A DNA stretch of 24,121 bases from a virus, in the UHGV virus genome UHGV-0136745; one strand, 5' to 3'. Below the pieces are notes generated by a model. That model searched no databases. It was not told where the DNA came from and saw nothing but the letters and a program-made list of their open reading frames with translations. This document shows, one piece after another, positions 1 to 24,048 of the stretch (its first letter is position 1; each line of letters starts with the position of its first letter). A program made the position numbers and the translations under genes.

Positions 1-330
1 TACAACCCCCGAAGTATTAGCCTTGTTCCTTGTCGTGTTGCGGTTGTTATCAATCTTAGCTACTTTTCTCAAGTTTAATATTCTATTGTCATCCCTTATG
101 TGATTTATATGGTCTATCTCAAATCCTGTAGTCAGAACATCATTAGGGTTGCACATATCCCAAATTATTCTGTGAACAGGGATATGCTTGTTTTTATGTT
201 TCACGCGCACGTACCCATCGCGCTCCTTTGTGCCTGCTACTAAACTTCTTTTTGCACCCCTACGCCACTTTTTCCATGATAGTACCCCGGTATTGTGGTC
301 GTAATTGAAAATCTCATCCCAATAGGTCAT
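1..330 (-). CDS. HNH homing endonuclease (HNH_3-like), 3' end cut by window edge
   Basis: Reverse-strand translation from ATG at 330..328 gives MTYWDEIFNYDHNTGVLSWKKWRRGAKRSLVAGTKERDGYVRVKHKNKHIPVHRIIWDM...IDHINHIRDDNRILNLRKV..., the HNH_3 pattern (GY.V...H..VHRIIW...IDHIN...DNR..NLR). Open to position 1. ATG overlaps the helicase stop (ATGA). Absent from ORF track because no stop lies in the window. Confidence 0.7.
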   Translation of the reverse strand, partial: MTYWDEIFNYDHNTGVLSWKKWRRGAKRSLVAGTKERDGYVRVKHKNKHIPVHRIIWDMCNPNDVLTTGFEIDHINHIRDDNRILNLRKVAKIDNNRNTTRNKANTSGVV

Positions 331-1751
331 TTTTTACCTCTGCGCTTCATATACTCTAGTAATATGTCTTGTACTTGCTTTTTCTCGTCGGTACGAGCCG
401 CAACTACTTCATCCAAGGTATCTTTTGCGATTATATGGTAGATAAATACCGCTCTATTATAGCCCGCTTGTTTTTGACGGGTTGGACCTATGCGCTCAAC
501 AACCTGCAAATAGTGCTCAAGGTTCCAGCCTTGCGAAATAAACGCCAGATGATGTCCGCCGTCCTGTAAATTTAAACCGTGCCCGGCTGACGCCGGATGC
601 ACACACAAAATCTCGATTTCACCTCTGTTCCACGCTTCCATCTGCTTGTTACCCTTAGCACCTTTGGCAAACGCCTGCGCCTGCGGAAAACGTTTCAGGA
701 TGCGCTCCAGTTCGTGTTTAAACTGATAGGCCACCAGTAACGGCGCGCCCTGTAACTCCTCAACAATGGACTCCAGCGCATCCAGTTTCGTATCGTGTAC
801 TTTCTCCCAGTCTTTCGTTGCCTCGCCGTCCGGCCCTGATACATACACGGCACCGGATGCAATCTGCAAACACTTCGACGTCTTCGCCGCTGCGTTAGCC
901 GCCTCAACTTCTCCGCTCTCCAGTTCCGCAAATAACTTTTCCTCCATATCGATGTACGCCTGACGCGCTTTCTTCGGCAGGTCGATTTCAACCGGTACGA
1001 TAATGGGCGCCTCGCATCCAAACCACTCGGCGGGGTCGATGGTTAGACTGATGTCTTTCATCTTCTGATGAATTTCATTATCCGCACCCGGGCGCGCGTG
1101 ATACTCCCGTGCCATAGCGGATTTACCCTTCTGTACCGAATTAAACCAGCGGTCGGTGAACGCGGTGTATGAAGAGCCAAGACGCTCGCCGCCGTCTATA
1201 AACCAGTTCTGGCCCCAAAGGTCTTTGAGGCCGTTAGGCGATGGTGTACCGGTCAGATTAATGAAGCGCTTAACCTTCCCGAATGCTACCTTACTGAGCG
1301 CCTTTGCCCGCTTACTGCCACCAGAACGGCTACGGAAAGATTTCAGCTTCGTGCTCTCATCAGCGACGATAACCGTGAAAGGCCAGTCGTCTTTGCCATA
1401 GTAGTCAATCAGCCACTCGATAACTTCGTAGTTAGTGCACACCACATTAGCGTCGGACTCCAGCGCCGCGATGCGGCGCTTCTCTGAACCGGTTGCGTCT
1501 ACTACACGTAGCGTAGGGAAATTCCACTTCTCCTGTTCCGCGGGCCACGTACCTGACGCAACACGTAACGGGGCAAGGATTAACACGCGGTCGTCGTCCG
1601 TAAGTTGCCCATTACGGAACAGCCTGTTAAGGACCCACATAGTAGAGGAGGTTTTACCCCCTCCCATACCACACCAGATATTACAACGTGGGTGCTGTAG
1701 CATGAACGAAGTCATGAGCTTTTGGTATTCGCGCCTTTGGAATTTAGACAT
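327..1751 (-). CDS. Superfamily 2 DNA helicase (DEAD/DEAH-box, SNF2-like)
   Basis: ORF 327..1784; Walker A GMGGGKTSS, motif II DESTKLKS, ILAPLRVASGTW and LTGTPSPNGLKDLW typical of SNF2-type helicases. Start placed at internal ATG 1751 (MSKFQRREYQ), which has a GAGG SD and sits 5 nt from the upstream gene stop; 1784 is the alternative. Confidence 0.8.
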   Translation of the reverse strand: MSKFQRREYQKLMTSFMLQHPRCNIWCGMGGGKTSSTMWVLNRLFRNGQLTDDDRVLILAPLRVASGTWPAEQEKWNFPTLRVVDATGSEKRRIAALESDANVVCTNYEVIEWLIDYYGKDDWPFTVIVADESTKLKSFRSRSGGSKRAKALSKVAFGKVKRFINLTGTPSPNGLKDLWGQNWFIDGGERLGSSYTAFTDRWFNSVQKGKSAMAREYHARPGADNEIHQKMKDISLTIDPAEWFGCEAPIIVPVEIDLPKKARQAYIDMEEKLFAELESGEVEAANAAAKTSKCLQIASGAVYVSGPDGEATKDWEKVHDTKLDALESIVEELQGAPLLVAYQFKHELERILKRFPQAQAFAKGAKGNKQMEAWNRGEIEILCVHPASAGHGLNLQDGGHHLAFISQGWNLEHYLQVVERIGPTRQKQAGYNRAVFIYHIIAKDTLDEVVAARTDEKKQVQDILLEYMKRRGKK

Positions 1752-2427
1752 GGTTAGCCTCGTAAACTGCTTTTGCGAAACCACGCGGAGTTAACGAGCG
1801 GATTACCTTAGTGCGCGCGCTCTTGCCCCCCAACTTCTTGTGCTGGTCAGAATACCCAGCACCAACGGCAACGGGCTTAACCTCCGGCATAACGAAGCCG
1901 TTGCCAACCCACAGACACGTCTTTTTAGGATACGCATCTCGCGGCTTTATGTACTCGGGGAAGGTCGGGTGTGTATCATCCTCTGGCAAGTAGCCGCCGT
2001 ATTCGAACGGGTCAAACGTATAATCTGGCTTACGCCACATAGAGGAAAGCACGCTAACCGGATTCTCAATCATATACGGCACGTTGTATTTCTTCGCCAG
2101 ACGAGCCGCTACTTTACATGTGATAACTGCTTCAACCTGAAACGTTGCATTCTTTTTACGCTTAGCTTCAAAATGCGCAGCCCCGCTTACAGCAAGGTCA
2201 GTACACGGCGGGAACGCGAAAATAATATCTGGCGCTACGTCGAAGTCGAACTTGTTATCAATCCATGCGTTTACATAGTGAATATTCTCGTGCTGAACCT
2301 TAGCGCCGGCAGTGTTGTAGTCGCCGTGGTCGGCATCATCGTAATTGAAACAATAGCAAGTATGGCCTGCTTCCGCCCACGGCTGGACCATAAGGCCCGA
2401 ACCGTCAAACAGTGACCAGATAATCAT
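1744..2427 (-). CDS. DNA (cytosine-5)-methyltransferase-like protein, unusually compact (227 aa)
   Basis: Motif I-like SLFDGSG (FxGxG AdoMet site), motif IV-like FPPCTDLAVSG (catalytic PC), motif VI-like MIENPVS (ENV), C-terminal RSLTPRGFAKAV resembling the R.LTPRE.AR element. Far shorter than typical C5-MTases; no obvious target-recognition domain. ATGA overlap with upstream ORF. Confidence 0.55.
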   Translation of the reverse strand: MIIWSLFDGSGLMVQPWAEAGHTCYCFNYDDADHGDYNTAGAKVQHENIHYVNAWIDNKFDFDVAPDIIFAFPPCTDLAVSGAAHFEAKRKKNATFQVEAVITCKVAARLAKKYNVPYMIENPVSVLSSMWRKPDYTFDPFEYGGYLPEDDTHPTFPEYIKPRDAYPKKTCLWVGNGFVMPEVKPVAVGAGYSDQHKKLGGKSARTKVIRSLTPRGFAKAVYEANHV

Positions 2428-2615
2428 TTCAGCACCAGCACCAGTTCTTTACGCCCGAACGCCGTAACGTTACCTGTTACGTCCTCGATAACCAGTTTAC
2501 CGTTCGACTCGACGAACACCGTATCAACGGCGACAGGCTGGCGCGTCTTAACGTTGAAAATCATGTCACCTGGTACGATGTCACGTGCGGGTTTGCGGTC
2601 ATATTCGTGTTTCAT
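2424..2615 (-). CDS. hypothetical protein (63 aa)
   Basis: ORF in operon orientation; stop overlaps start of the MTase-like gene (ATGA). No recognisable motif. Confidence 0.45.
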   Translation of the reverse strand: MKHEYDRKPARDIVPGDMIFNVKTRQPVAVDTVFVESNGKLVIEDVTGNVTAFGRKELVLVLK

Positions 2616-2645
2616 TTCTCAATTCCTTATATTGTTGGTGTATGA

Positions 2646-3038
2646 CTAACTATAATAGTTTGCTATTAGGTCGTCAACCTGTTTGAACGAGCCAACGACA
2701 AAAACATTTGCGCCACGTTTACGCATCCGCTCATGTTCCCGTAGCTGGTGAGGGTCTGGCTTCGTGTTTTCGTCTTTCTTTACCTCGACGAACCAGATGA
2801 TGCCGTCGGGGAGAATTACCAGCAGGTCGGGGGCGCCTATTCTATTTTCGTACGACAACTTACGAACGAGGCCCCCGATGGCCTCGAATCGCTCTTTTGC
2901 GTATTTCTGAATCTTGCCTTCCGGGGTCATTAACCGATTATCCTGCTGAAAATAGCCGCGCCCAGTAATAAAGCTACAAGTACAGCGATTATAGTTATCA
3001 TAATACGCACCCCTCGCGTTTAGTATGTTCAATCCCAC
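2646..3038 (-). CDS. VRR-NUC domain nuclease (PD-(D/E)XK fold)
   Basis: C-terminal region GAPDLLVILPDGIIWFVEVKKDENTKPDPHQLREHERM matches the VRR-NUC signature (D...E.K plus downstream Q). Start uncertain: GTG at 3038 or internal ATG at 2930 (MTPEGKIQKY). Confidence 0.6.
   Translation of the reverse strand: MGLNILNARGAYYDNYNRCTCSFITGRGYFQQDNRLMTPEGKIQKYAKERFEAIGGLVRKLSYENRIGAPDLLVILPDGIIWFVEVKKDENTKPDPHQLREHERMRKRGANVFVVGSFKQVDDLIANYYS
2649..2677 (-). promoter_or_regulatory. sigma70-like promoter (reverse strand TTGACG-17 nt-TATAGT) with embedded palindrome AATAG-N4-CTATT
   Basis: Reverse complement of 2649..2677 reads TTGACGacctaatagcaaactatTATAGT. Same architecture as the sites at 6152..6180 and 8998..9026. 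Lies inside the last codons of the VRR-NUC gene. Confidence 0.45.
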
Positions 3039-3083
3039 AGCGCGGACAGATTCGGCAGTCTTCTTCGTAGAACCAGTAAATTT

Positions 3084-3215
3084 TCATTCCAGCACCCACA
3101 GATAAATTGCGATTAACATACGCAATACGGCGACCATCATGCCGTACTGGCCCTCGTGACAGTAGACACCGGCGGCGAATCCCGCCAGTGCTGTGACAAT
3201 CAGTTTACTTAGCAT
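3084..3215 (-). CDS. possible small hydrophobic membrane protein (43 aa)
   Basis: Reverse-strand ATG at 3215..3213 gives MLSKLIVTALAGFAAGVYCHEGQYGMMVAVLRMLIAIYLWVLE, stop at 3086..3084. Overlaps the polymerase 3' end by 11 nt. Below ORF-track cutoff. SD weak. Confidence 0.3.
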   Translation of the reverse strand: MLSKLIVTALAGFAAGVYCHEGQYGMMVAVLRMLIAIYLWVLE

Positions 3216-5406
3216 AACGTTTCATCTCCGCGCCTTCTGCGACTAAAGGGAACCCCTCGGCCCACTCAGGCAATGCGCACATTAATTTTTCCAGCTCAGC
3301 CACCGTGTACTCCGGTGTATCCGGGGTTTCGCATACCAGTTCATCGTGCACAGAAAGCACGATAGGATACCCACCACCCTCAACATTAACCATTGCATAC
3401 GCAAGTAAATCACGGCACAGCGCCTGAACAATGTTTTCACAGGCCTTGCCGCCGTGTGTGTACAGGGTGGTCCATTGGCGGGTTAACTGGTTTTCACCCT
3501 GGTATTTGATTCGCACATTTGTGTTTACCCGTCCGTCTTCGTCGGTTTCTTTTGTCACACTAACGCCGATTCCTGGATACGATAGAATCCGAGCCGACGG
3601 CAACTCCATACACAACCACCAACCGGGAACTTTCCTGCCGGACGAATCGGTTTCTACTGTTCTCCAGATTCGGATGGCGCGTTCACCATTCTTGCGCAGA
3701 TGCGCCCCTGCCCAAAACTCACGACCCGGATTTCTTACAGCGGCTAAAATTCCATCTTTAAGGTCGCGCCAGAAAGCTACTGTTTCCGGGTGTGACTCAC
3801 GCCACATACGCTTGATCGCGTCGCATGTACGCCAGACTTTCTTATCAAGAATATATGAAGGTCTGTCATCTTTTTCACCGGGACGCGGGGGGCGCTTGGC
3901 TTCCTGAATACGTGCCCACTCGTAACCCCGTGCCGTAGCGGCCCATATATGGTCAGGGAAAGTCCCGTCCATTGTTTTTGCCATCTCAATAAGGTCAAGA
4001 CCTAGGTTTTTAGCAAACGTAACGAACGCTCCTACGCCCCCCTCATAGCCTAGGCCAAGCTCGCAAGCCTTGCCTATCTGTCTGATTTCCTTGAAGTTTT
4101 TCTTAATGTCATCTGGGTCCATGCCGAACATCTTACCTGCGGTTACACAGTAAATATCCAGTCCGGCGCGGAACGTATCGAGCGCGGTTTCTTCTCCTGC
4201 CAGCCATGCCAACCCGCGGCCTTCGACGTTAGAGTAATCGGCGACGACAAACTTATGTCCTGCTTCCGGGATAATGCAGCTACGAACCGTCGATGCCGTT
4301 AGTTTGGCTACGTCAAAACGGCGATGCGCGCGCCCCTTAAGTAGCGCCGCAATTCCTTTATCCAGTTCATCGTCATGATAGTACCCGCGCGCCAGGTTCT
4401 GTGGCTGGAAGCCTTTACCCGCCCATCGCAGAGTACGTTTCGCCCCGCCGTACTGCAAGCAACCACGGCGGCGGTCGTCAGAAGAACGGCCCAACAGCAG
4501 GGGGTTATATTTCGTAGACGCAGTTGACGCCGCGCCCAGGCGCATTTCTATAATCGTGCGCGCATCGTCCGGTAAATCCTCGTCCGCCAGCAGGTCATGA
4601 AGTGTTGACTTCTGCGCATTGTGAATGCGGTGAGCGGGGGCCAGTTCACGCAGAATCGGCAGGAAGTCTTTGCCGGTTAGCGAGCCGCCGTATTTACGCT
4701 GAGCTTCTTCCTGCAACTGCGCCTTGTGTTTCTCTACGGCTTCAATCGCGGATTCCGCCAGAGCGACATCAACCTTAAACCCACGGTCGTTGATTAACTG
4801 GTCCAGTTCCAGAACCCGGTCCTCGAACTCGGAGTTACCCCAACGCGGCAGCTTGTGGAATACTTCACGCATCGCTGTTATGTCGCTCACGGCGTACTTG
4901 ATGAACAACGCCCACTCGTCCGGGTGCGTTTCGGCAGTGTAGCGACGGATTTTATAGTTCTTCGGCGTAGGTTTAGAGAAACGCTGAATCAGCGCCTTGC
5001 CTCGTTTGTCTTTTGCATTGTCCGCAGATACCCCAAGCACTTCACACAACGCATCGAGTGACCCCGGCAGCGCGTGGCGAAACGCCCAAATCATCGTATC
5101 AATGGTGTTGCTGACCGGAATATCGAAGTCCCAGCAGTGCTTCATGATGAGACGGTCGAACATTGAGCCGTTGTGCCAGACCATCTTGATACGGCTGTTC
5201 GGCTTAACCAGGCGGCGCAGTGCACGGTGCAAATCGCCTGGCATGTCGCTGCCGTCTGTGCAATCCCATACCTGAACAGGTTCATCGTCGAAGGCGTAGG
5301 TGCAGATAAGCACTCCGGTAGTCGGGTGTTCGGCGTAGGCATAGGAGCCGACTTTCTTCAAATCGGCTTCGGAGAAGGTTTCAAAGTCCAAGAACAGGTA
5401 ACTCAT
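3205..5406 (-). CDS. DNA polymerase, family A (Pol I-like) with 3'-5' proofreading exonuclease domain
   Basis: 733 aa. Exo I motif FLDFETFS near N-terminus; polymerase motif A VVADYSNVEGRGLAWLAGE, motif B RQIGKACELGLGYEGG (K...YG), motif C LSVHDELV. Confidence 0.9.
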   Translation of the reverse strand: MSYLFLDFETFSEADLKKVGSYAYAEHPTTGVLICTYAFDDEPVQVWDCTDGSDMPGDLHRALRRLVKPNSRIKMVWHNGSMFDRLIMKHCWDFDIPVSNTIDTMIWAFRHALPGSLDALCEVLGVSADNAKDKRGKALIQRFSKPTPKNYKIRRYTAETHPDEWALFIKYAVSDITAMREVFHKLPRWGNSEFEDRVLELDQLINDRGFKVDVALAESAIEAVEKHKAQLQEEAQRKYGGSLTGKDFLPILRELAPAHRIHNAQKSTLHDLLADEDLPDDARTIIEMRLGAASTASTKYNPLLLGRSSDDRRRGCLQYGGAKRTLRWAGKGFQPQNLARGYYHDDELDKGIAALLKGRAHRRFDVAKLTASTVRSCIIPEAGHKFVVADYSNVEGRGLAWLAGEETALDTFRAGLDIYCVTAGKMFGMDPDDIKKNFKEIRQIGKACELGLGYEGGVGAFVTFAKNLGLDLIEMAKTMDGTFPDHIWAATARGYEWARIQEAKRPPRPGEKDDRPSYILDKKVWRTCDAIKRMWRESHPETVAFWRDLKDGILAAVRNPGREFWAGAHLRKNGERAIRIWRTVETDSSGRKVPGWWLCMELPSARILSYPGIGVSVTKETDEDGRVNTNVRIKYQGENQLTRQWTTLYTHGGKACENIVQALCRDLLAYAMVNVEGGGYPIVLSVHDELVCETPDTPEYTVAELEKLMCALPEWAEGFPLVAEGAEMKRYAK

Positions 5407-5425
5407 TATTTCGACCCTTAGTAAA

Positions 5426-5445
5426 AAGGCCCAATAAAGGGCCTT
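5426..5445 (-). terminator. putative intrinsic terminator/attenuator between SSB-like gene and DNA polymerase
   Basis: Reverse strand RNA forms stem AAGGCCC/GGGCCUU with a 6-nt loop, followed by a U-rich tract (UUUUUAC). Located in the 58-bp gap between two co-directional genes. Confidence 0.4.
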
Positions 5446-5464
5446 AATTAAACATATTCAGATA

Positions 5465-6094
5465 TTAACCACGGCGACGACGTTCGCGGCGCGGTGCTTC
5501 ATCTTCTTCGTCGTCTTCCAGGTCATTGACGCTGGCCGCAACTTTAGAACCACCGAACGCTTTACCCTCGCCGACATATTTAATCGCCAGCAGGTTAACA
5601 CCGAGAACTTTGTACTTCTGGCTAAACCAGACTTCCACGCTTACGTTAGCAACGCAGCCGCTGTAAACCTGTTCACCTTCAATCTGTTCACCTTCGACAT
5701 TGAAGTCTGGCTCTACCTGAGTTTCACCTTTTTTAGAGGTTACAATCAGAGGTTGTTTCTGCGCCTTCGCTTTGAAGTAGAAACCTTCAGGGAAGTCTTC
5801 AAAAGGATTATCACGCTCGGCGATGTCCTTAATAGCACATTTATCCATGTGCTTGCCTTCGCCGTAGTTTGACTTCATCCACTTCTCGGCAGCGGCGGCC
5901 CCCAGTGCTTCTTCTACAACCGCGTAAACGGTGTCGTACATTTCGTCGATTTGCGCATGGTCAGACGGCAGGATGATAGTGGCGCTGTACTGACCTTTAG
6001 TGATAGAGCCATCGTCGTTTTCACGGTCTTTTTCGCGTTCGAATACGTTAACCCATGCAGTGTTTACTTTACGCAGATTTAATTTCAGTCCCAT
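5465..6094 (-). CDS. putative ssDNA-binding protein (DUF2815-like by architecture)
   Basis: 209 aa with acidic C-terminal tail (NDLEDDEEDE) then a basic end. Sits between a Cas4-like nuclease and Pol A, the position usually occupied by DUF2815 SSB proteins next to DUF2800-type nucleases. Assignment rests on context and composition. Confidence 0.45.
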   Translation of the reverse strand: MGLKLNLRKVNTAWVNVFEREKDRENDDGSITKGQYSATIILPSDHAQIDEMYDTVYAVVEEALGAAAAEKWMKSNYGEGKHMDKCAIKDIAERDNPFEDFPEGFYFKAKAQKQPLIVTSKKGETQVEPDFNVEGEQIEGEQVYSGCVANVSVEVWFSQKYKVLGVNLLAIKYVGEGKAFGGSKVAASVNDLEDDEEDEAPRRERRRRG

Positions 6095-6151
6095 TTGATT
6101 TCTCGCTTTTAAGTTTCGTTTACTCCGGGAGCTGCCCGGCCAGTGATTAGA

Positions 6152-6180
6152 ACTATAATAGCTAACTATTCAGTAGTCAA
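6152..6180 (-). promoter_or_regulatory. sigma70-like promoter (reverse strand TTGACT-17 nt-TATAGT) with embedded palindrome AATAG-N4-CTATT
   Basis: Reverse complement reads TTGACTactgaatagttagctatTATAGT. A CCGGG/CCCGG hairpin lies in the predicted 5' UTR (6126..6140) ahead of the SSB-like gene. Confidence 0.5.
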
Positions 6181-6184
6181 CACT

Positions 6185-6367
6185 TTATTCTAAATCTTCT
6201 TTCTTACACATCTCTAAAAAGGCTTTGTACGAGGTTATTCTAAATACCCGGTCAACAGCCTTAGACTTGCTTCTGTGAAGAACATGCACTAGTCCTCTTT
6301 TCTTTCGGGCCATAAACTCATCTAAATACGCCCGGCGCAATTGCTCAACTGTACTTGATTTACTCAT
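6185..6367 (-). CDS. hypothetical small basic protein (60 aa)
   Basis: ORF 6185..6397; start placed at internal ATG 6367 (MSKSSTVEQLRRAY), which overlaps the nuclease stop as ATGA. Confidence 0.45.
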   Translation of the reverse strand: MSKSSTVEQLRRAYLDEFMARKKRGLVHVLHRSKSKAVDRVFRITSYKAFLEMCKKEDLE

Positions 6368-7611
6368 TCTAAATCCTCCTCTGTTACCTGATTCCACTCA
6401 GGCCGTTTGTCGTCTGCCGTTGCTACGCACGGTGCACCTGGCTTACGTGTGATGAAGTCTTTCAGTTCTTCTTCCGGTATAACCTTAACCGCTTCGCTCG
6501 GCGTCATGAGAACAACTTTGTTTAGCATAGTGCCGTATGCCTCAGCCACCTTGTCAGCGTCTTTCCACGCACGATTACCCGGACGACCTTCTACCAGCTT
6601 GTAACCCGGCACTTTCTTACCGGAATGCAACGCGGCAGCCATAGCTTTCTCAACCTTGTCGATGTGCTGGCGCAACAACGGCAACTTCTCATACTCAGCG
6701 ACGAGTTGCTCAAGTGTCAATTCCAGCGCGAAGTCGTCCTCCAGTTCTTCTGCCAGTACCGAATTAACCGTCTTCGTTCTGGCGGCACACTGTTCTGAGA
6801 ACCTACACCACTGGCAACCGTCCGCCGACGGCTTGAAGTCCGACGCTTTCAGGTTCTTCTTACCGCGGAAGTACGCATCGAGTGCTAACAGCGCGCGTTT
6901 CTGTGCGAACTTAGCGAACAGTTCAAGACCTTCAACCGAGATATCCCACTCCGACGCACCACCGGCATACGGCTGGAATATGACCAGACGAACAGTTGTT
7001 ATGTTATAACGTCTCTTGAGTCGGCGATAAACACCGAGAGCATAGAGCATAAGCTGCTTGTTTTCTTTCGCTTCTACACGATGCCGTCCTGTTTTCAGGT
7101 CGCCGATAATGAGCATGTGTTCGTCAGTGTTCGCCAGTTCCTGAACGGCAACGAGGTCTGCAGTTCCGAATGTCTCAACGCCTTCGTATCCCGGATGCAG
7201 TACCTCAGTAAGATTGACGCGCATTTCAAGCTTGGCGTAAGTCGCTACGTCGATAATAGCTTTGCAGTAGTCGGTATACTTTCGCACCTGCTCAATCATG
7301 TCCGCTGTAATCAGTACCGCGCCTTCCATCGGGCTGATTAGCGCCTTAATCTGGCCTTTACCTTCATCCAGCACGTAAGCGCCGACTTCGCGTTCTAACG
7401 GCAGCGCAGTGCCCCGGATATAGGCGTTTAGGTGCACTTCTGCTATTGTATGACATGCGGTCCCCGTAACGGCAGCTTTACCGGATGTGTTCGGGATGTC
7501 TTTTTCACAGGCCAGTGATGCGGCACAGGTAAGCCACTTTTTAGCACCTGATGGCGACAGTAAGGCGTGCACATCGTTATTGCCGCCGCGTTCTTTTAGC
7601 TTCATGCTCAT
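6364..7611 (-). CDS. Cas4/RecB-family PD-(D/E)XK exonuclease with Cys cluster (DUF2800-like)
   Basis: Motifs ADLVAV...IIGDLKTG (D / D.K nuclease core) and C-terminal CQWCRFSEQC plus N-terminal Cys, consistent with a 4Fe-4S Cas4-like nuclease. Start at 7611 (ATGA overlap with upstream 50-aa ORF) or 7626. Confidence 0.8.
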   Translation of the reverse strand: MSMKLKERGGNNDVHALLSPSGAKKWLTCAASLACEKDIPNTSGKAAVTGTACHTIAEVHLNAYIRGTALPLEREVGAYVLDEGKGQIKALISPMEGAVLITADMIEQVRKYTDYCKAIIDVATYAKLEMRVNLTEVLHPGYEGVETFGTADLVAVQELANTDEHMLIIGDLKTGRHRVEAKENKQLMLYALGVYRRLKRRYNITTVRLVIFQPYAGGASEWDISVEGLELFAKFAQKRALLALDAYFRGKKNLKASDFKPSADGCQWCRFSEQCAARTKTVNSVLAEELEDDFALELTLEQLVAEYEKLPLLRQHIDKVEKAMAAALHSGKKVPGYKLVEGRPGNRAWKDADKVAEAYGTMLNKVVLMTPSEAVKVIPEEELKDFITRKPGAPCVATADDKRPEWNQVTEEDLE

Positions 7612-7760
7612 AAGTTCCAACCCCATTTAACTTTACGCGTTTTGCGTTTGCAGGCAACCGTGTCGCCGCTACGGTTGAAAATAATCAGCCAAGTTGAGTT
7701 ACTCACTCGAAAAGGCTGGTGACGTCTAACAAATAGAAGTCGCGCTTTACGGTTCGTCAT
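7608..7760 (-). CDS. small basic protein (50 aa), unannotated in ORF track
   Basis: Reverse-strand ATG at 7760..7758 preceded by GGAGG (spacing 7). Translation MTNRKARLLFVRRHQPFRVSNSTWLIIFNRSGDTVACKRKTRKVKWGWNL. ATGA overlaps at both ends with neighbouring genes. Confidence 0.45.
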   Translation of the reverse strand: MTNRKARLLFVRRHQPFRVSNSTWLIIFNRSGDTVACKRKTRKVKWGWNL

Positions 7761-8029
7761 ACCCTGACCTCCCACTGGTCAATTAAATGTCGTGTCTTAT
7801 GGTCACAATGCATCGCCCAGCTATACATTGATTCGAAGACATAAAAGTCAGGCTTAGCGAATGTCGTGCGCTTAATCTGCGACAGGTGACGGCCTATATC
7901 TTTCGGCTTCGGTACTTTTCCTAGGTAGGCCATCTCTTCCATCTGGTGCGCACCCGACGGTGCACGCAACAGCCACAACGCCTCTGTGTTATCTCGTCGG
8001 TCGATGCCGCGGTAGAGTTGGTAAATCAT
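7757..8029 (-). CDS. hypothetical protein (90 aa)
   Basis: ORF in operon orientation, ATGA overlap with the upstream 75-aa gene. No recognisable motif. Confidence 0.5.
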   Translation of the reverse strand: MIYQLYRGIDRRDNTEALWLLRAPSGAHQMEEMAYLGKVPKPKDIGRHLSQIKRTTFAKPDFYVFESMYSWAMHCDHKTRHLIDQWEVRV

Positions 8030-8253
8030 TGATCTTCCTCCGCTTCCTCCGCTTCCTCCGCTTCATCTGCGGCAGAAATAAGCGCTTTGGCAAGTTCTCG
8101 CGCCATGTCTGGGGTGTATTCCATAAACGACAGCCCTGTCATTTCGTCGGCTGGGTCAAAATCTAGTGTTACTCTTTTTTGCTTGCCCTGTATGGTGTTG
8201 CGCACCTCGAGGCTAACTCTGGCTTCATCGCTGTTAATATCTTTAACAATCAT
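8026..8253 (-). CDS. hypothetical protein with C-terminal (EAE)n acidic tail
   Basis: 75 aa ending EAEEAEEAEEDQ, encoded by a tandem 9-bp DNA repeat. Confidence 0.5.
   Translation of the reverse strand: MIVKDINSDEARVSLEVRNTIQGKQKRVTLDFDPADEMTGLSFMEYTPDMARELAKALISAADEAEEAEEAEEDQ
8037..8066. repeat. tandem 9-bp repeat (cctccgctt x3) inside a coding region
   Basis: Plus strand tcctccgcttcctccgcttcctccgcttc; encodes the EAEEAEEAEE tail on the reverse strand. Confidence 0.8.
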
Positions 8254-8270
8254 ACCTTGACCCTCTGTTT

Positions 8271-8294
8271 GCTGCCCTCACTAATGAGGGCAGC
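8271..8294. other. perfect 10-bp stem, 4-nt loop hairpin in intergenic gap
   Basis: gctgccctca-ctaa-tgagggcagc; no adjacent U/A tract on either strand. Lies between the acidic-protein gene and the next leftward gene. Confidence 0.6.
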
Positions 8295-8307
8295 ATATGT
8301 TAAGTGG

Positions 8308-8808
8308 TTATTCTTCTTCGAAATACTTGTTCTTAATCGCCGTCAGGCGTTCCAGGTATTCGGCCAGGTCTTCGTCTTTAATCGCGGCAATCTTCATCTT
8401 CTTACCGGTGAACTCTTCCAGCAGTTCATCGGAGTCGTCACACGCGGCATCGCTCGGGCCTTCGTTAATCGCATCGTCGATAGCCTGAATCTGGTCACGC
8501 AGAGACTGGTAATCGACTTCTTCTTTATCCTCTTCCGGCTCTGGCGCAGGATCCTCTACCTTAGCTTTACGTTGCTTGCGCTTCGGTTTCTCTTCTTCCG
8601 CCGGTTTAGTGTCGATAACTTCTTCACCTTCTACCGGGATTTCTTTTGTTACTTCTTCGGCGCACTCGGATACCTCTTCTTTGGCATACACTACCGTCTC
8701 TACTTCTAAAGGCGCTGCAACTTGTGCTGGCTGTTTCGCACTGTTAGCTGCAATCAGTTCATGTGCAACTACGAAACGTTCCAGTAATTTCAGAAATTGT
8801 TCTAACAT
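8308..8808 (-). CDS. highly acidic early protein (166 aa), function unknown
   Basis: Strongly Glu/Asp-rich (e.g. VEDPAPEPEEDKEEVDYQ, SDAACDDSDELLEEF, ends YFEEE). AGGAG SD 8 nt upstream of ATG 8808. First sizeable gene downstream of the leftward promoter at 8998..9026. Confidence 0.6.
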   Translation of the reverse strand: MLEQFLKLLERFVVAHELIAANSAKQPAQVAAPLEVETVVYAKEEVSECAEEVTKEIPVEGEEVIDTKPAEEEKPKRKQRKAKVEDPAPEPEEDKEEVDYQSLRDQIQAIDDAINEGPSDAACDDSDELLEEFTGKKMKIAAIKDEDLAEYLERLTAIKNKYFEEE

Positions 8809-8851
8809 TATTTGTTCTCCTGTTTATAAGTGTAAGTTTTAGATAAATATA

Positions 8852-8965
8852 TCAATTACGTCTATTTATGTAGTCTGATACCGTGTCCTTAACTAGCACA
8901 CATACTACATACATCAGGATTGCTATCGACGCTAGTAATACTATTGTTATGCTATCTGTGTGCAT
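8852..8965 (-). CDS. possible small membrane peptide (37 aa), unannotated in ORF track
   Basis: Reverse-strand ATG at 8965..8963 preceded by GAGAGGAGAG SD. Translation MHTDSITIVLLASIAILMYVVCVLVKDTVSDYINRRN has one hydrophobic helix-length stretch. Lies in the leader between promoter and acidic-protein gene. Confidence 0.35.
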   Translation of the reverse strand: MHTDSITIVLLASIAILMYVVCVLVKDTVSDYINRRN

Positions 8966-8997
8966 TTTGTTTCTCTCCTCTCGTTTGGTATGAGCTA

Positions 8998-9026
8998 ACT
9001 ATAATAGCAAACTATTCACCTGTCAA
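8998..9026 (-). promoter_or_regulatory. sigma70-like leftward promoter (TTGACA-17 nt-TATAGT) with embedded palindrome AATAG-N4-CTATT
   Basis: Reverse complement reads TTGACAggtgaatagtttgctatTATAGT: consensus -35, 17-nt spacer, near-consensus -10. Divergent from the HTH gene promoter. Confidence 0.55.
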
Positions 9027-9029
9027 CGC

Positions 9030-9058
9030 TTTTTATCAAAAAATTAATATGCTACTAT
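9030..9058 (+). promoter_or_regulatory. putative rightward promoter for HTH gene (-10 TACTAT, weak AT-rich -35)
   Basis: gCTACTATTCAcaTATC at 9051..9067 matches the -10 and downstream part of the 12546 and 13921 promoters; upstream is AT-rich (TTTTTA) rather than a good -35. Confidence 0.35.
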
Positions 9059-9089
9059 TCACATATCAATCAGCTAAGGAGTAACCATT

Positions 9090-9314
9090 ATGCAACAGTC
9101 ACCAATTGGCGCTCGTATGGAGCAACGCCGTAAAGAGCTTGGCCTGTCCCAGCGCCGTTTAGCTACTCTGGTCGGCGTTTCCCAGGGGGCGATTAACCAA
9201 CTTGCCCTCGGCGTAACTCAAGATGTCCGTCGCACCACTCTGTTTAAACTTGCGGAAGTTCTCGAAGTTAAGCCAGAGTGGTTAGCTTTCGGTGACCAGA
9301 CTCAAGGGGCTTAA
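9090..9314 (+). CDS. HTH-XRE family transcriptional regulator (Cro/CI-like)
   Basis: 74 aa; ELGLSQRRLATLVGVSQGAINQLALG is a classic XRE helix-turn-helix. AAGGAG SD upstream. Only rightward gene in this region. Confidence 0.85.
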   Translation: MQQSPIGARMEQRRKELGLSQRRLATLVGVSQGAINQLALGVTQDVRRTTLFKLAEVLEVKPEWLAFGDQTQGA

Positions 9315-9329
9315 CGCCCCTTTCTTTTT
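9305..9329 (+). terminator. intrinsic terminator after HTH gene
   Basis: AGGGGC-ttaac-GCCCCT stem-loop overlapping the stop codon, followed by TTTCTTTTT. Confidence 0.55.
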
Positions 9330-9331
9330 AC

Positions 9332-11596
9332 CTATTCCAAATCCTCCTCAGTCACTACCAGCATTTCGTTCGGTTCGTACACGGTCTTCGGTATCTTGCT
9401 GTCGTTAATCCTGGTGTTTAGCCTGTATCGCCCAGGTATTATCTGATTGTTCTCGTCAGTACCGGGTACAAGATATCCTGCTTCAACCATTTTCTTAATC
9501 TTACCGCGCTCTATAGCTTCCTTAGAGTTGAACGCCTTTGCATTAGGGTCAGACTGCGCAAGCTTATTAGCTGCGGCTACTGTGATACCTTCGTTGCCGT
9601 TGTAGGTTCCCTCCGCCAGTTCAAACGCAGCCAGTATCGTGGCTTCTGAACTGTTTACTGCGTTCTCTACGGTTTTTCGTACATTTTCTTTACCTTCCTT
9701 TGTCAGCCCTTCTTCCTTCTCTTTCTCTTCGTCAGTCTTGAATGGCTCAAAGCCCCACGGCATCAACACGAGCGCCTTATGTGGCTCCGGTAGGTCGAGG
9801 TTTACGATTGTGCCGTATTCCTCGGTGCTGCCGATGAATTCTACCGCGCGGTACGCCTTCGGAGGAGGGGCTTCACGGAACTGTACTGACTCCAGCACCA
9901 TGCCAATCGTTTTCTGTTGCGGCCCGTGCTTAAATTTAGTGTGTGACACGTTAATCTGGCGGTCGGTTGCACGTTCAATTGTCAGTTCCACATCGACACC
10001 CGCATACAGCGCACCACTGCCACGGGCTTTCTTTCCACCTTTTGGCGTGTGATGGACCACACCAACGGCGGCTTTAGTCGCGTCGCGGACTTCTTTCAGT
10101 ATGGCTATAACTTTACCCATACCGATTGCCGTTGATGAACTATTCTCGTCGAACTTATCAATCGTCAGGGCCAGCGTCTGGTTAAGGGTGTCGAACGCAA
10201 CCATGCCAATTGGCTCATCGCCAGCAGTTTCGCGCATCAGCTTAATCAGGCTTTTCAGTTTGCCGACGTCGCCCATATCGATAACGTGGATGTAGTTCTT
10301 CCCTTCCTCTCCGTACTTAGCCGCGAGCGCATCAATACGTGTGCGCGTAGCTGCACCGCCCTCACCATCGATATAAAAGTGATGGCAGCGTTGGGTGTCC
10401 GCACCTGCAAACCGATATCCGGCAGCGCTCAGGTACATCATGCCAAGGGTGTAGAAAGACTTATATGTGCCGGACTCACCGACAATATCCCAGATACAGT
10501 CCGACGGCATATAGCCCTCGACGACGAAATCGGCCTTTACCGGTTCCGGTAAATCGTCTTCCTCAGAGTCGTCGTCTTCCAGGTCGTCAAGGCTACATTC
10601 GACCGTTTCACGTGCACCCCAGCCGATGGCCTCAGCGACTTCACTGAACGGCAGCCCTGTCGCTTCGCAAGCGTATTTCCACACCTCTTTCGGCGACATC
10701 CCCTCTGTTGCCGTTAGGTCGGTGTCGTGAATCATGGTTACGTTAGGCGCAGCGTAGCCCTCGCGCGGGAAGCACAGCAGGAAATCATCCGGGCGCGGTG
10801 TCGGGTCACTGTAGTTCTCGGCGTGCTCAGGCGTCGCTGGCATCTTCAGACCACGTGGTGTAATGACACCGCCATACTCGAATGCCAGTGCTTCGAACGC
10901 GTCCGTAAACGCTGTGCGCAGTTCTTCCGGTATCTGGTAGTCGGATGCGCTGCTTACCTCGTAATCCGGGACTCCTTCCAGCAGACGGTCAGGGTCAATC
11001 ATGCCATTTCGGCGAGACCAGACGACCTCAGAGTTAACTGGCGGCAGGTACATCGGCTGGGACAGGGTAAACCCGCTGCGGTCAGCACCCATGCCTTTAA
11101 AGAAGTGCTCCAGCAGCCCGTGGCGGACGCGGATGATATCACCACCCTCTACCGGACGCGCCAGCGGCATGACGACACGGAAACGCGGTGATTCGTCGGT
11201 GTGTGATGCCGTGGTGTAAAGGCACATTGCTACACGGCTGCGCTTAACCAGACGCACAGCTTCCTGATACTCTTCTGGCGTCGCGCTGTCAAAATCCAGA
11301 TAAGCCAGTGACGATTTACTTACTGACGCGTCACAGCGGTAGAAGAAGCCCCGTCTCGCCTGTTTAAACTCGCCCGTTTCCGGGTCTTTCACGGTGCTGT
11401 GTGTTGAGCCGCACGCGGCAGTAATGTACCCCGGCGCGGTCTTTGGGTTAATCCCGTCACGAACGGCGTCAAGTGGCTGGATTAACTCTTTAAGGTCGTC
11501 CAGTGTTGCCGTGTGAGTGGTTCTGACGTTTATATCCTTTTTCTCCGCCCGCGCGTTGCGGCGAGACCATGAATAGGATAAAATTACATCGGACAT
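9332..11596 (-). CDS. DNA primase/helicase (primase-polymerase N-terminal region plus RecA-fold helicase domain)
   Basis: 754 aa. Walker A-like VGESGTYKSF, later VVHHTPKGGKKARGSGALYAGVDVEL (RecA/DnaB-like helicase motifs), acidic linker (DDLEDDDSEEDD). Size and position fit phage primase-helicase fusions. Confidence 0.8.
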   Translation of the reverse strand: MSDVILSYSWSRRNARAEKKDINVRTTHTATLDDLKELIQPLDAVRDGINPKTAPGYITAACGSTHSTVKDPETGEFKQARRGFFYRCDASVSKSSLAYLDFDSATPEEYQEAVRLVKRSRVAMCLYTTASHTDESPRFRVVMPLARPVEGGDIIRVRHGLLEHFFKGMGADRSGFTLSQPMYLPPVNSEVVWSRRNGMIDPDRLLEGVPDYEVSSASDYQIPEELRTAFTDAFEALAFEYGGVITPRGLKMPATPEHAENYSDPTPRPDDFLLCFPREGYAAPNVTMIHDTDLTATEGMSPKEVWKYACEATGLPFSEVAEAIGWGARETVECSLDDLEDDDSEEDDLPEPVKADFVVEGYMPSDCIWDIVGESGTYKSFYTLGMMYLSAAGYRFAGADTQRCHHFYIDGEGGAATRTRIDALAAKYGEEGKNYIHVIDMGDVGKLKSLIKLMRETAGDEPIGMVAFDTLNQTLALTIDKFDENSSSTAIGMGKVIAILKEVRDATKAAVGVVHHTPKGGKKARGSGALYAGVDVELTIERATDRQINVSHTKFKHGPQQKTIGMVLESVQFREAPPPKAYRAVEFIGSTEEYGTIVNLDLPEPHKALVLMPWGFEPFKTDEEKEKEEGLTKEGKENVRKTVENAVNSSEATILAAFELAEGTYNGNEGITVAAANKLAQSDPNAKAFNSKEAIERGKIKKMVEAGYLVPGTDENNQIIPGRYRLNTRINDSKIPKTVYEPNEMLVVTEEDLE

Positions 11597-11654
11597 GTGT
11601 ATATTCCTTCAGCAAGTAATTTGGCCTCGGCGTTCACCGCGTCGGGGCTTTCTT

Positions 11655-11945
11655 TTAACGTTTAGCCAGACATTCCATTAAATGTGAATATTTTCTGTAA
11701 TAGCAAGGAACTAAATCACACCCAAAATAATGATAAACATAATCCAAGTGGTCGGTAACATCTATAGCGGCCGACATTGTGCTAAGACGGCGAAGGCTAA
11801 TCAACTGTAATTCTTCCGTAATGCAAAATGGCTCATACGTATCAAGTTTGCAAGAAACGTTAAAACACAGAGCATAGCCGTCTTGTGCGGAGTGGACCAG
11901 AAATGCACTGTCGTTCTCTTTATCGTGAAAAATTACACCTTTCAT
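11655..11945 (-). CDS. hypothetical protein (96 aa)
   Basis: ORF in operon orientation; start overlaps stop of upstream AlpA-like gene (ATGA). No recognisable motif. Confidence 0.45.
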   Translation of the reverse strand: MKGVIFHDKENDSAFLVHSAQDGYALCFNVSCKLDTYEPFCITEELQLISLRRLSTMSAAIDVTDHLDYVYHYFGCDLVPCYYRKYSHLMECLAKR

Positions 11946-12112
11946 CTCACATTCTCCTTAACCCACGCTTCTACTTTATTTCGGTCAAACGTACCCGGCA
12001 TACGGCGGCCCATTACTTTAACGCTGCAATCAGGGAACTTCCCGCTTTTAATCCAGTTGTTTATTGTCTGGCGAGTAACTCCGATTAATTCTGCAACCTC
12101 GTTTATAGTCAT
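11942..12112 (-). CDS. AlpA/excisionase-family HTH DNA-binding protein (56 aa)
   Basis: MTINEVAELIGVTRQTINNWIKSGKFP is the AlpA/Xis-type HTH signature. Start at internal ATG 12112 with AGGAGA SD; track ORF extends to 12184 with an implausible Cys-rich N-terminus. Confidence 0.65.
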   Translation of the reverse strand: MTINEVAELIGVTRQTINNWIKSGKFPDCSVKVMGRRMPGTFDRNKVEAWVKENVR

Positions 12113-12522
12113 TTCACGCTCTCCTGTGTAAGATGTAGTGAAGTATAAAGCGGTAACTTTGTAAAAGCAACCAAAACAACACACAAAGCACTAAGATACA
12201 AAAGATGCTACTGGTATTGACTTTTACTTAAAAATATGCTAAGCTTCACTGAGCTTGTGAGATATCGCAAGCGACCGCGGAGCGGCAGGGAACGCAACGC
12301 GTGCCATCAGGCACTTGAGTGTAGTTCCGCTGGCGCTTTCGGAAGGGCCAAAGTCTATTGTTAATCACGCCTAAATACCCAAGTCACTGATAATTAAAGT
12401 TTCTATAGTTGCCGTAAGCAAGGTAGCGAGTACTTCACTCCGCTGGGGTGGGCTAACGCCCACCCACTGCGTTGCGTACTCTTTTAAGAAAACGAAGAAT
12501 CACAACGGCAACGAATCTTCGC

Positions 12523-14903: not shown

Positions 14904-15067
14904 CACTCGCAACTGACATCATGAAACACAGCGGCAAAGCGCCGCTGTCACCACGTAAAAGACATTTCAACACGCATCCGACGTATCTAGAATTACATGA
15001 GCGCCGGAAGACACCAGCACAACGACTGGCTGAATATTGGAGAAAGCATGACTACTATCGCGTTTGA
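14900..15067 (+). CDS. hypothetical small basic protein (55 aa)
   Basis: Start ATG 14900 overlaps upstream stop (ATGA); GAAGGGGTGG upstream. 3' end overlaps the HslV-like gene by 20 nt. Confidence 0.4.
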   Translation: MTLATDIMKHSGKAPLSPRKRHFNTHPTYLELHERRKTPAQRLAEYWRKHDYYRV

Positions 15068-15485
15068 CGGTAAGACGATGGCCTGCGACACCCGGGTTAC
15101 CTGCGGAGACACGTTCTGCAACACCGATACCAAGATATACGAGAACGATGCTTATGTTATCGGGGTCGCCGGTGACGCGGGTGTCGGAACTATGCTCGTT
15201 CAGGTGTCAAATATCCTGACTATGCGTACTTATGAGTATAACTTCCAGGCTATCGTATATGAGAAACATACCCAACGTATCTTCTATGTGTCGTTCGATA
15301 AAAAATGGGAGTCAAATAGCAGCGTTGTCCCAATTGTTGATAGCTACTTCGCCGTCGGTTCAGGGGCTGATTTCGCGCGCGCAGCTATGTATTTAGGTAA
15401 CACCGCAACACGCGCTGTTACGGTAGCTGCAGAGTTCGACATAAACACGGGGGGCAAGATTATTACCAAACCATTATTCGGATAA
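15048..15485 (+). CDS. HslV/proteasome beta-subunit-like N-terminal-nucleophile (Thr) peptidase
   Basis: From ATG 15048 (GGAGAAAG SD): MTTIAFDGK... with Thr directly after Met, as in HslV (TTIVSV...); VIGVAGDAG vs HslV VIAGFAGGTAD; YFAVGSGADFARAAMYLG vs HslV LIAIGSGGPYAQAAARAL. No HslU-like ATPase in the window. Confidence 0.65.
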   Translation: MTTIAFDGKTMACDTRVTCGDTFCNTDTKIYENDAYVIGVAGDAGVGTMLVQVSNILTMRTYEYNFQAIVYEKHTQRIFYVSFDKKWESNSSVVPIVDSYFAVGSGADFARAAMYLGNTATRAVTVAAEFDINTGGKIITKPLFG

Positions 15486-23412: not shown

Positions 23413-23466
23413 CCCCGCGGAGGTATGCCTTTCTCAGGCATCGACCAAACTCCACGGGGTTTTCTT
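23413..23466 (+). terminator. compound stem-loop terminator
   Basis: Outer stem CCCCGCGGAG / CTCCACGGGG (9 of 10 pairs) enclosing inner hairpin TGCCT-ttctc-AGGCA, followed by TTTTCTT. Confidence 0.5.
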
Positions 23467-23478
23467 ATAGGAGTAATT

Positions 23479-24048
23479 ATGGGTGTTGTTTTTGGAGTAG
23501 GGGTGAACGATGTTTCACCAATCAGTTATGGCAGAGTTCACATAGCTTCTTACGCCGCGTGGAAAAACATGTTGAAGAGATGTTATGACGAAAAATGGCA
23601 ACAAAGTAACAGAACCTATATAGGTTGCTGTGTGTCGGACGATTGGTTGGTGTTCAGTAATTTCAAGGTCTGGTTTGACACTTTTTATGTACCTGGGTGG
23701 CAGATAGATAAGGATTTACTGAACCCTGGAAATAAAGTTTATGATGCCTATAACTGTGTTTTCATCCCCAAATCCCTTAACTCTTTCCTCACAGCCCACG
23801 ACGCCCTCCGCGGCAAACACCCACTCGGCGTACATTTTCATAAACAAAAGAAAAGATTTATCGCCCAAGTGTCCGTGGATGGTGTATCTGAGCAAATAGG
23901 CGCTTACGAAACCGCTCAAGAGGCACATTTAGCCTGGTTTCATAGAAAAATTGAATTAGCCTATGAGTACAAAGGCCTTTGCGATAGCATAGACCCACGC
24001 CTTTTTGAAGGCGTCTTACGTAAGATTAACTCAATGAAAGAGGTTTAG
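23479..24048 (+). CDS. HNH-like endonuclease with C-terminal AP2 DNA-binding domain (homing-endonuclease-like)
   Basis: From ATG 23479 (AGGAG SD). C-terminal LGVHFHKQKKRFIAQVSVDGVSEQIGAYETAQEAHLAW matches the AP2 pattern (GV..K.W.A.I...G..LG.F.T.EEA..AY); upstream WQIDKDLLNPGNKVYDAYNCVFIPKSLN resembles a degenerate HNH_3 core. Track ORF starts 23425 inside the terminator. Confidence 0.55.
   Translation: MGVVFGVGVNDVSPISYGRVHIASYAAWKNMLKRCYDEKWQQSNRTYIGCCVSDDWLVFSNFKVWFDTFYVPGWQIDKDLLNPGNKVYDAYNCVFIPKSLNSFLTAHDALRGKHPLGVHFHKQKKRFIAQVSVDGVSEQIGAYETAQEAHLAWFHRKIELAYEYKGLCDSIDPRLFEGVLRKINSMKEV

Follow-up and report, generated by a model that had tools for sequence, protein, structure and literature searches.

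The window analysed in this work is a stretch of 24,121 bp from UHGV virus genome UHGV-0136745. [quoted passage not shown] Together, they constitute an ordinary DUF2800 nuclease/DUF2815 SSB/PolA module, which has already been described and is not new. The first-pass annotation had regarded the region as an expected phage module resembling DUF2800/DUF2815 modules, and this view was borne out by the matches to both families, by the gene order kept in relatives and by the published account of the module. The two proteins are quite likely a recombination/replication accessory pair, in which the nuclease would resect or trim DNA ends and the SSB would coat and anneal the strands; their families, folds, motifs and gene order were observed, and their cooperation is what we infer. 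The nuclease, SSB and PolA genes were adjacent and co-oriented, and PolA, which the first-pass annotation had named as a neighbour, was a family A polymerase directly downstream of the SSB gene. The genes of the module and the small open reading frame (ORF) within it are as follows.

3205..5406, minus strand: family A DNA polymerase (PolA), 733 aa, with an N-terminal 3'-5' exonuclease domain (PF00476, E = 8e-18; PF01612, E = 1e-4; PHROG 17, E = 4e-136)
5465..6094, minus strand: SSB gene, 209 aa (PF10991, PHROG 112)
6185..6367, minus strand: small ORF, 60 aa, no family match
6364..7611, minus strand (7626 as alternative start): DUF2800 nuclease gene, 415 aa from the ATG at 7611 (PF10926, PF12705, PHROG 69)

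The SSB gene was confirmed as an ORF of 209 aa at 5465..6094 (-). Its product had been called a putative SSB from context only, and hidden Markov model (HMM) searches for DUF2800 and DUF2815 had been proposed; both searches gave scores above the Pfam curated cutoffs. The SSB matched PF10991, the former DUF2815 family that is now named Enc34_ssDNA-bd, with 57.1 bits (gathering cutoff of 26) and an E-value of 2.3e-15 over profile positions 3-173 of 176. PF10991 was its sole Pfam match; membership of an unrelated family, which the first-pass annotation had named as the outcome speaking against an SSB, was looked for and did not appear in the Pfam scan. The sole PHROG match was PHROG 112 (‘Gp2.5-like ssDNA binding protein and ssDNA annealing protein’, E = 3.5e-41), and all homologues of the SSB that were found also carried PF10991. 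NCBIfam does not model these families; its scan with the SSB, the nuclease and the two small ORFs returned no match and was therefore uninformative.

The predicted structure of the SSB agreed with the family assignment. The single sequence already matched the PDB entries 4jg2 and 5odj weakly, and a profile of 42 family members reached 4jg2 (1.4e-19), 4klk (1.9e-15) and Enc34 ORF6 (5odj, 3.6e-10). A first word-indexed homologue search returned 16 close relatives, and a second search with their alignment gave the diversity for structure prediction. The AlphaFold 2 (AF2) model had a mean predicted local distance difference test (pLDDT) score of 85.5 and contained strands at residues 3-16 and 36-43, followed by helices at 49-64 and 66-76. 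This arrangement corresponded to an oligonucleotide/oligosaccharide-binding (OB) barrel capped by a long helix directly after strand 2, and a long helix that caps the barrel after β2 is the hallmark of T7-type SSBs (PMC5686142). In the Foldseek search against the PDB, exactly nine matches were obtained at E ≤ 0.001 (5odl, 5odj, 4klk, 4jg2, 5odk and 1je5), all of which were Enc34 ORF6, two DUF2815 proteins or T7 gp2.5; the next match had an E-value of 0.54. Hence, the SSB call is no longer based on context only, because four independent lines (Pfam/PHROG, the PDB profile, the AF2 model and Foldseek) converged on it. The comparison of sequences and models supports the 5465-6094 product as a T7 gp2.5-type (DUF2815/Enc34 ORF6-like) ssDNA-binding protein.

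Enc34 ORF6 bound ssDNA in gel shift assays and was crystallised with (dT)35 (PMC5686142). The SSB resembled this protein and the other DUF2815 proteins of known structure (5ODJ/5ODL, 4JG2 and 4KLK) in Pfam family, in predicted fold and, by an approximate mapping, in aromatic stacking positions. The C-terminal tail, predicted to be disordered, resembled that of Enc34 ORF6 in its acidic beginning, and the gene likewise lies in a replication module beside PolA. The DNA contact residues of Enc34 were mapped via the profile alignment and the family alignment, a mapping that is approximate in loops. The DNA-stacking residues Trp150 and Tyr30 aligned with W156 and W14 of the SSB, respectively, and Arg112 of the basic cleft aligned with K110. 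The region of Tyr156 and Asn154 fell in a gapped loop of the alignment, where the mapping is uncertain.

Alternatively, the 209-aa protein might have a generic OB fold and bind a different ligand, as a structural or metal-binding protein would, for instance. OB folds are widespread, the core barrel of Enc34 resembles CusF and PriB (PMC5686142), and the identity of the protein to the solved SSBs was only 17-20%. However, T7-type SSBs were the only matches at E ≤ 0.001 in the PDB fold search, the hallmark long helix after strand 2 was present, and the DNA-stacking aromatic positions were kept in the approximate mapping. Moreover, the charged tail of the protein was predicted to be disordered, and its gene lies between those of a nuclease and a polymerase. 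A non-SSB function was thus regarded as very improbable and was rejected.

The 6364-7611 product had been described as a PD-(D/E)XK nuclease with a cysteine cluster. It matched PF10926 (DUF2800) with 230.1 bits (cutoff of 21) and an E-value of 6e-68 over the complete profile (positions 1-368 of 368). It also matched PF12705 (PDDEXK_1, E = 8.4e-9) and PHROG 69 (‘exonuclease’, E = 6e-121). The exhaustive homologue search gave 11,589 representative clusters at E ≤ 0.001, and homologues were found in 1,527 of 50,697 phage records. Sixty full-length members, down to 27% identity, were aligned, and residues were numbered from the M at 7605. In all 60 sequences, C27, H52, E127, D150, D169, K171, Q184, Y188, C264, C267 and C273 were invariant. 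These residues include the RecB-family motifs, namely D150 (D), D169-L-K171 (DxK) and Q184-LML-Y188 (QxxxY), and a set of four cysteines, in which the N-terminal C27 is joined by C264-x2-C267-x5-C273 C-terminal to the nuclease core. Both parts of the earlier description, the nuclease motifs and the cysteines, were thus present and conserved across the family.

Remote comparisons placed the nuclease among the RecB-like enzymes. The single-sequence phmmer search against the PDB gave nothing meaningful, and its sole match was butyrophilin (E = 0.98). With the 60-sequence profile, mycobacterial AdnA/AdnB were weakly matched in their nuclease domains (E = 1.4e-3 to 3.3e-2), and the CxxCxxxxxC stretch aligned with AdnA in a second domain of low score. 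The same profile matched the cyanobacterial PD-(D/E)XK protein 9iac (E = 1.6e-4), with an alignment that included the CxxCxxxxxC stretch. The AF2 model of the nuclease had a pLDDT of 92.5, with a confidently folded helical/beta C-terminal domain at residues 290-413. According to the Foldseek results, the closest solved folds were AdnA, MGME1, Dna2, AddA/AddB, Exo5 and, after these, Cas4, with RecE, RecB and lambda Exo further down. DUF2800 was classed as RecB-like in a 2012 survey of PD-(D/E)XK enzymes (PMC3424549). By its sequence and predicted fold, the 6364-7611 product is a DUF2800 RecB-family PD-(D/E)XK nuclease with a Cas4/AddB-type four-cysteine set. AdnA/AdnB, AddB, Dna2, Exo5 and Cas4 share with it the PD-(D/E)XK core, the D/DxK/QxxxY motifs and a 1 + 3 arrangement of cysteines that brackets the domain. 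By analogy with AddB, AdnAB, Dna2, Exo5 and Cas4, the four conserved cysteines probably hold an iron-sulphur (Fe-S) cluster. Unlike the AdnA/AddB/Dna2-type enzymes, the nuclease stands alone without a helicase domain and has a C-terminal DUF2800-specific domain of its own.

The term ‘Cas4-like’ in the first-pass annotation held for the fold, the catalytic motifs and the four-cysteine pattern and did not hold for the family. A true Cas4 would act in CRISPR biology, for example by feeding host-derived spacers into host arrays or in anti-defence, with an SSB functionally unrelated to it. The C...CxxCxxxxxC pattern and the RecB motifs are common to the nuclease and Cas4, the Cas4 structure 8d3l was among the fold matches (E = 7.9e-4), and one distant phage homologue was annotated as ‘Cas4-like exonuclease’. 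However, the Pfam scan at E ≤ 0.01 gave only PF10926 and PF12705 and no Cas4 family, and Cas4 ranked 25th in the fold search, behind AdnA, MGME1, Dna2, AddAB and Exo5. The nuclease is approximately twice as long as Cas4 and has an extra conserved C-terminal domain. Furthermore, its genetic linkage with DUF2815 and PolA is strict even among distant phages, which points to a role in DNA metabolism. The ORFs of the window that were scanned contained no cas or CRISPR-related family; no repeat search for a CRISPR array was made. Because a Cas4 Pfam match and a CRISPR context were both absent and the length was double, the nuclease was not considered a member of the Cas4 family. A CRISPR-type role has scarcely any likelihood and was rejected; the Fe-S cluster, a property of Cas4, is putative here.

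The start codon of the nuclease was examined on the ORF at 6364..7626 (-), which has in-frame ATGs at 7626, 7611 and 7605. The ATG at 7611 overlaps (ATGA) the stop of an upstream 50-aa ORF at 7608-7760, and the aligned N-terminus MSMKLKERGG of the nuclease matches MILKERGG of phage Bas70. Other gene callers gave 420 aa (JGI, start at 7626) or 413 aa (ENA and most relatives, start at 7605). The ATG at 7611, which the first-pass annotation had taken as the end coordinate of the module, is the best-supported start by sequence comparison, with an uncertainty of up to 7 codons; it was favoured because the ATGA overlaps are kept at both junctions of the 50-codon ORF and because of the aligned N-terminus. 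The 50-aa ORF (7608-7760, -; MTNRKARLLF...) is inserted exactly between a phrog_4965 gene and the nuclease gene and overlaps each of them by ATGA. Bas70 lacks this ORF, but 11 phage records carry it with 86-88% identity, and 29 more have weaker matches.

The gene order of the module was kept in distant relatives. DUF2800, a small ORF, DUF2815 and PolA followed one another in a 42.6-kb contig (L002), in which the SSB was 39% identical, and the same order with an optional small ORF was found in a 17.9-kb contig (L004) with an SSB of 24% identity. The published name of this arrangement is the ‘duf2800-gp2.5-polA module’ (PMC8093625). Phages with this module are known from Gram-positive as well as Gram-negative hosts, and a separate ssb gene is typically absent (PMC8093625). 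The scanned ORFs of the window, which covers approximately half of the phage genome, contained no further SSB family.

According to the proposed mechanism, the DUF2800 protein would act as a Mg-dependent RecB-family nuclease and would most likely resect or trim DNA ends and single-strand/duplex junctions, thereby exposing single strands. The SSB would coat the exposed ssDNA, would serve the replisome of PolA and the primase-helicase, and would probably anneal complementary strands in the manner of T7 gp2.5. Together, the two proteins may act as an exonuclease and its annealing partner, with roles in recombination-dependent replication, in the formation of concatemers and in break repair. We infer the polarity of the nuclease, its Fe-S binding, the annealing by the SSB and the joint action of both proteins, the last by analogy from the adjacency of the genes and the biochemistry of T7 gp2.5.

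The activity of the nuclease can be viewed against that of a characterised family member. The purified DUF2800 protein Bas14_0045 cleaves retron multicopy single-stranded DNA (msDNA) at the stem-loop base in a Mg2+ buffer, and its D177A/K179A mutant is inactive; the cut triggers type IX retron immunity (bioRxiv 10.64898/2026.07.14.737667). D169 and K171, which were invariant in the 60-sequence alignment, are the equivalents of D177 and K179. Bas14_0045 (B14T), the type IX retron trigger, shares with the nuclease PF10926, the catalytic D-x-K and AdnA as the closest structure. It comes from a different phage group, and the likeness rests on the Pfam family and the motifs; some homologues from Escherichia coli siphophages are approximately 45% identical to the nuclease. 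The C-terminal part of Bas14_0045 has been described as disordered, whereas residues 290-413 of the nuclease were predicted with high confidence to be folded.

Several points weigh against the proposed pair. Strand annealing is known for T7 gp2.5, and we know of no report of it for a DUF2815 protein. The function of the two proteins themselves is read from relatives, through sequence, models and analogy. The equivalent of Enc34 Lys46, the other basic cleft residue, is Q35 in the SSB and is not kept, with K33 nearby. The window covers approximately half of the phage genome, and a second SSB elsewhere is possible. The promoter and the terminator of the SSB gene are consensus matches only. Moreover, the activity of Bas14_0045 is endonucleolytic cutting at a junction and not processive 5'-3' resection; the role of this protein in the phage life cycle is unknown according to its authors, and truncated escape mutants are viable (bioRxiv 10.64898/2026.07.14.737667).

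The junction cutting of the characterised DUF2800 enzyme, which acts at the base of a stem-loop and hence at a single-strand/duplex junction, bears also on a role in lagging-strand maturation. In that case, the main substrates of the nuclease would be 5' flaps and RNA-primed ends that PolA has displaced, as for Dna2, MGME1 and Exo5, and the SSB would serve replication only. MGME1, Dna2 and Exo5, which process ssDNA flaps and ends, were among the closest solved folds, and the nuclease gene lies inside a replication module. In the Pfam scan of 3205..5406, a 3'-5' exonuclease and a polymerase were the only domains matched by PolA, and a 5'-nuclease domain was not among the matches. However, the end-resection nucleases AdnA and AddAB were equally close or closer, and host Pol I and RNase H could handle the primers. 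A flap- or primer-processing role is made possible by the junction cutting, by the structural likeness to Dna2, MGME1 and Exo5 and by a PolA in which no 5' nuclease domain was matched; it may be an additional function, and as the main role of the nuclease it is rather unlikely. The recombination and lagging-strand roles are not mutually exclusive, and a nuclease beside an annealing-capable SSB is the classical layout of phage recombination genes (PMC8093625).

The recombination/replication pair was also compared with the known phage systems. T7 gp2.5 (1JE5) resembles the SSB in its T7-type fold (Foldseek E = 4.5e-6) and, like it, has a family A polymerase and a primase-helicase encoded alongside; the identity between the two proteins is 14-17%. 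The partner exonuclease in T7, gp6, is a FEN-type enzyme and not a RecB-family enzyme. The lambda Exo/Beta and RecE/RecT systems resemble the module in that a nuclease gene and a gene for ssDNA binding or annealing stand in the phage early region, and RecE and lambda Exo were distant fold matches of the nuclease (ranks 28, 38 and 43). In contrast to these systems, the putative annealing partner in the module is an OB-fold SSB and not a Rad52-like protein, and the polymerase is also included. The nuclease has a cysteine cluster and is of the monomeric RecB-like type, whereas lambda Exo and RecE are a toroidal trimer or tetramer.

The C-terminal tail is a further point of difference from the known SSBs. 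The last 19 residues, encoded at 5465-5521 (-), are DLEDDEEDEAPRRERRRRG, in which acidic residues come first and an Arg-rich end closes the tail. The acidic run is DLEDDEEDE and the terminal stretch is APRRERRRRG; residues 198-209 were predicted to be disordered (pLDDT < 50). The acidic-then-Arg tail was kept in all relatives of the SSB down to approximately 36% identity, and longer relatives carried the acidic/Arg-rich unit two or three times. More distant DUF2815 proteins had purely acidic tails. The tail of T7 gp2.5 is also purely acidic, and its terminal aromatic residue is needed for contacts with the polymerase and the helicase. The tail of Enc34 ORF6 is acidic throughout (PMC5686142), whereas that of the SSB ends in the conserved Arg-rich stretch after the acidic run. 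The SSB subfamily may have swapped the canonical all-acidic tail for the acidic-then-Arg unit DDEEDEAPRRERRRR as a distinct device for interaction or self-regulation, an idea that we regard as doubtful. Possibly, alternating charge blocks would allow head-to-tail polymerisation of the SSB; another possibility is that the DUF2800 nuclease or PolA is recruited by the Arg-rich end and not by an aromatic residue at the terminus. If true, the tail device would be a new variant of T7-type SSB control.

The SSB gene is flanked by three candidate regulatory elements.

6152..6180, minus strand: sigma-70-like promoter TTGACT-17-TATAGT, which agrees with the consensus at 10 of 12 positions and lies directly upstream of the SSB gene
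6125..6139, minus strand: short hairpin CCGGG-CAGCT-CCCGG in the 5' leader of the SSB gene, read from the sequence
5423..5445, minus strand: terminator-like hairpin AAGGCCC-TTTATT-GGGCCTT followed by a run of T, located between the stop codon of the SSB gene and the start of PolA, read from the sequence

The Bas70 sequence was identical in the -10 box, in the spacer from its third base on and in the first five bases of the -35 box, and the leader hairpin was kept there except for one extra loop T. As a whole, the promoter, leader and ribosome-binding region hardly differed from that of Bas70, even though the neighbouring upstream ORF could not be aligned. The terminator-like hairpin had an RNA folding energy of -13 kcal/mol (z = -2.2 versus shuffled sequences). 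The pattern scan did not list this hairpin at 5423..5445, probably because the extended stem consumes part of the T run. The position of the SSB gene between a promoter-like site of its own and a terminator-like hairpin suggests that within the replication block it may form a transcription unit of its own, separate and self-contained, possibly highly expressed and at a level above that of its neighbours.

The 60-aa ORF at 6185-6367 (-) and the promoter-like site lie within the span of the first-pass annotation and were absent from it. The ATG of this ORF overlaps the nuclease stop (ATGA), so that the two genes are translationally coupled. The ORF had no match in Pfam, PHROG or NCBIfam and no tblastn match in the 50,697 phage records. 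In Bas70, an unrelated ORF of 67 aa occupied the same slot, with both flanks near-identical, and the distant relative L002 had another unrelated ORF of 73 aa there; no real similarity was found between the 60-aa ORF and either of these two. The gap between the nuclease and SSB genes thus appears to behave as a swappable small-gene slot, because the Bas70 ORF is unrelated while its flanks are near-identical.

The window is a contig of a Guernseyvirinae (Kagunavirus-like) siphophage of E. coli. In the whole-window megablast, 507 phage records were matched, and the best matches were the E. coli phages CR01, NTEC3 and HSE2, with 84-87% identity over approximately 70% of the window. The 5000-8000 stretch matched 426 records, mostly Salmonella and Escherichia phages, with 80-95% identity. 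The genes under study are already annotated in many Kagunavirus genomes, to which the window is 84-88% identical in DNA, and the labels of the pair in related phages are ‘exonuclease’ and ‘ssDNA binding and annealing protein’. The minus-strand replication block spans 327-12184 and includes, in addition to the module and several small ORFs between the nuclease and primase-helicase genes, the following genes.

327-1784, minus strand: SNF2 helicase
1744-2427, minus strand: DNA methyltransferase
2646-3038, minus strand: VRR-NUC/Holliday-junction resolvase-like nuclease
9332-11596, minus strand: primase-helicase

The VRR-NUC ORF at 2646-3038 (-) is 130 aa long from a GTG start, compared with 94 aa annotated for its Bas70 homologue; the true start probably lies further downstream, or the phage has a specific N-terminal extension. 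A lone gene for a helix-turn-helix (HTH) regulator or repressor-like protein (9090-9314, +; PHROG 4 and 8) stands inside the minus-strand block beside the primase-helicase gene, and Bas70 has the same arrangement of a plus-strand HTH gene. The plus-strand half of the window carries the lysis and head genes, namely endolysin, terminase, portal, head morphogenesis protein and HNH endonuclease. Among the small plus-strand genes of the early/lysis region, the ORF at 14997-15485 (+) matched PHROG 1040 (‘peptidase HslV family’, E = 1e-39). The HNH endonuclease gene at 23425-24048 (+; PHROG 953, E = 2e-77) lies 3' of the head morphogenesis gene, and HNH homing endonucleases were found at varying sites in related phages, including beside the nuclease gene.

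With these results, a context-based guess has become a well-supported annotation for a metagenomic Kagunavirus-like contig, which matters little as a discovery. Their practical value is indirect. Type IX retron immunity has newly been reported to be triggered by DUF2800 nucleases, and Gp2.5-type SSBs are candidate tools for recombineering. Labelling this very common pair correctly is therefore of help in predicting the sensitivity of phages to defence systems and in choosing recombination proteins.

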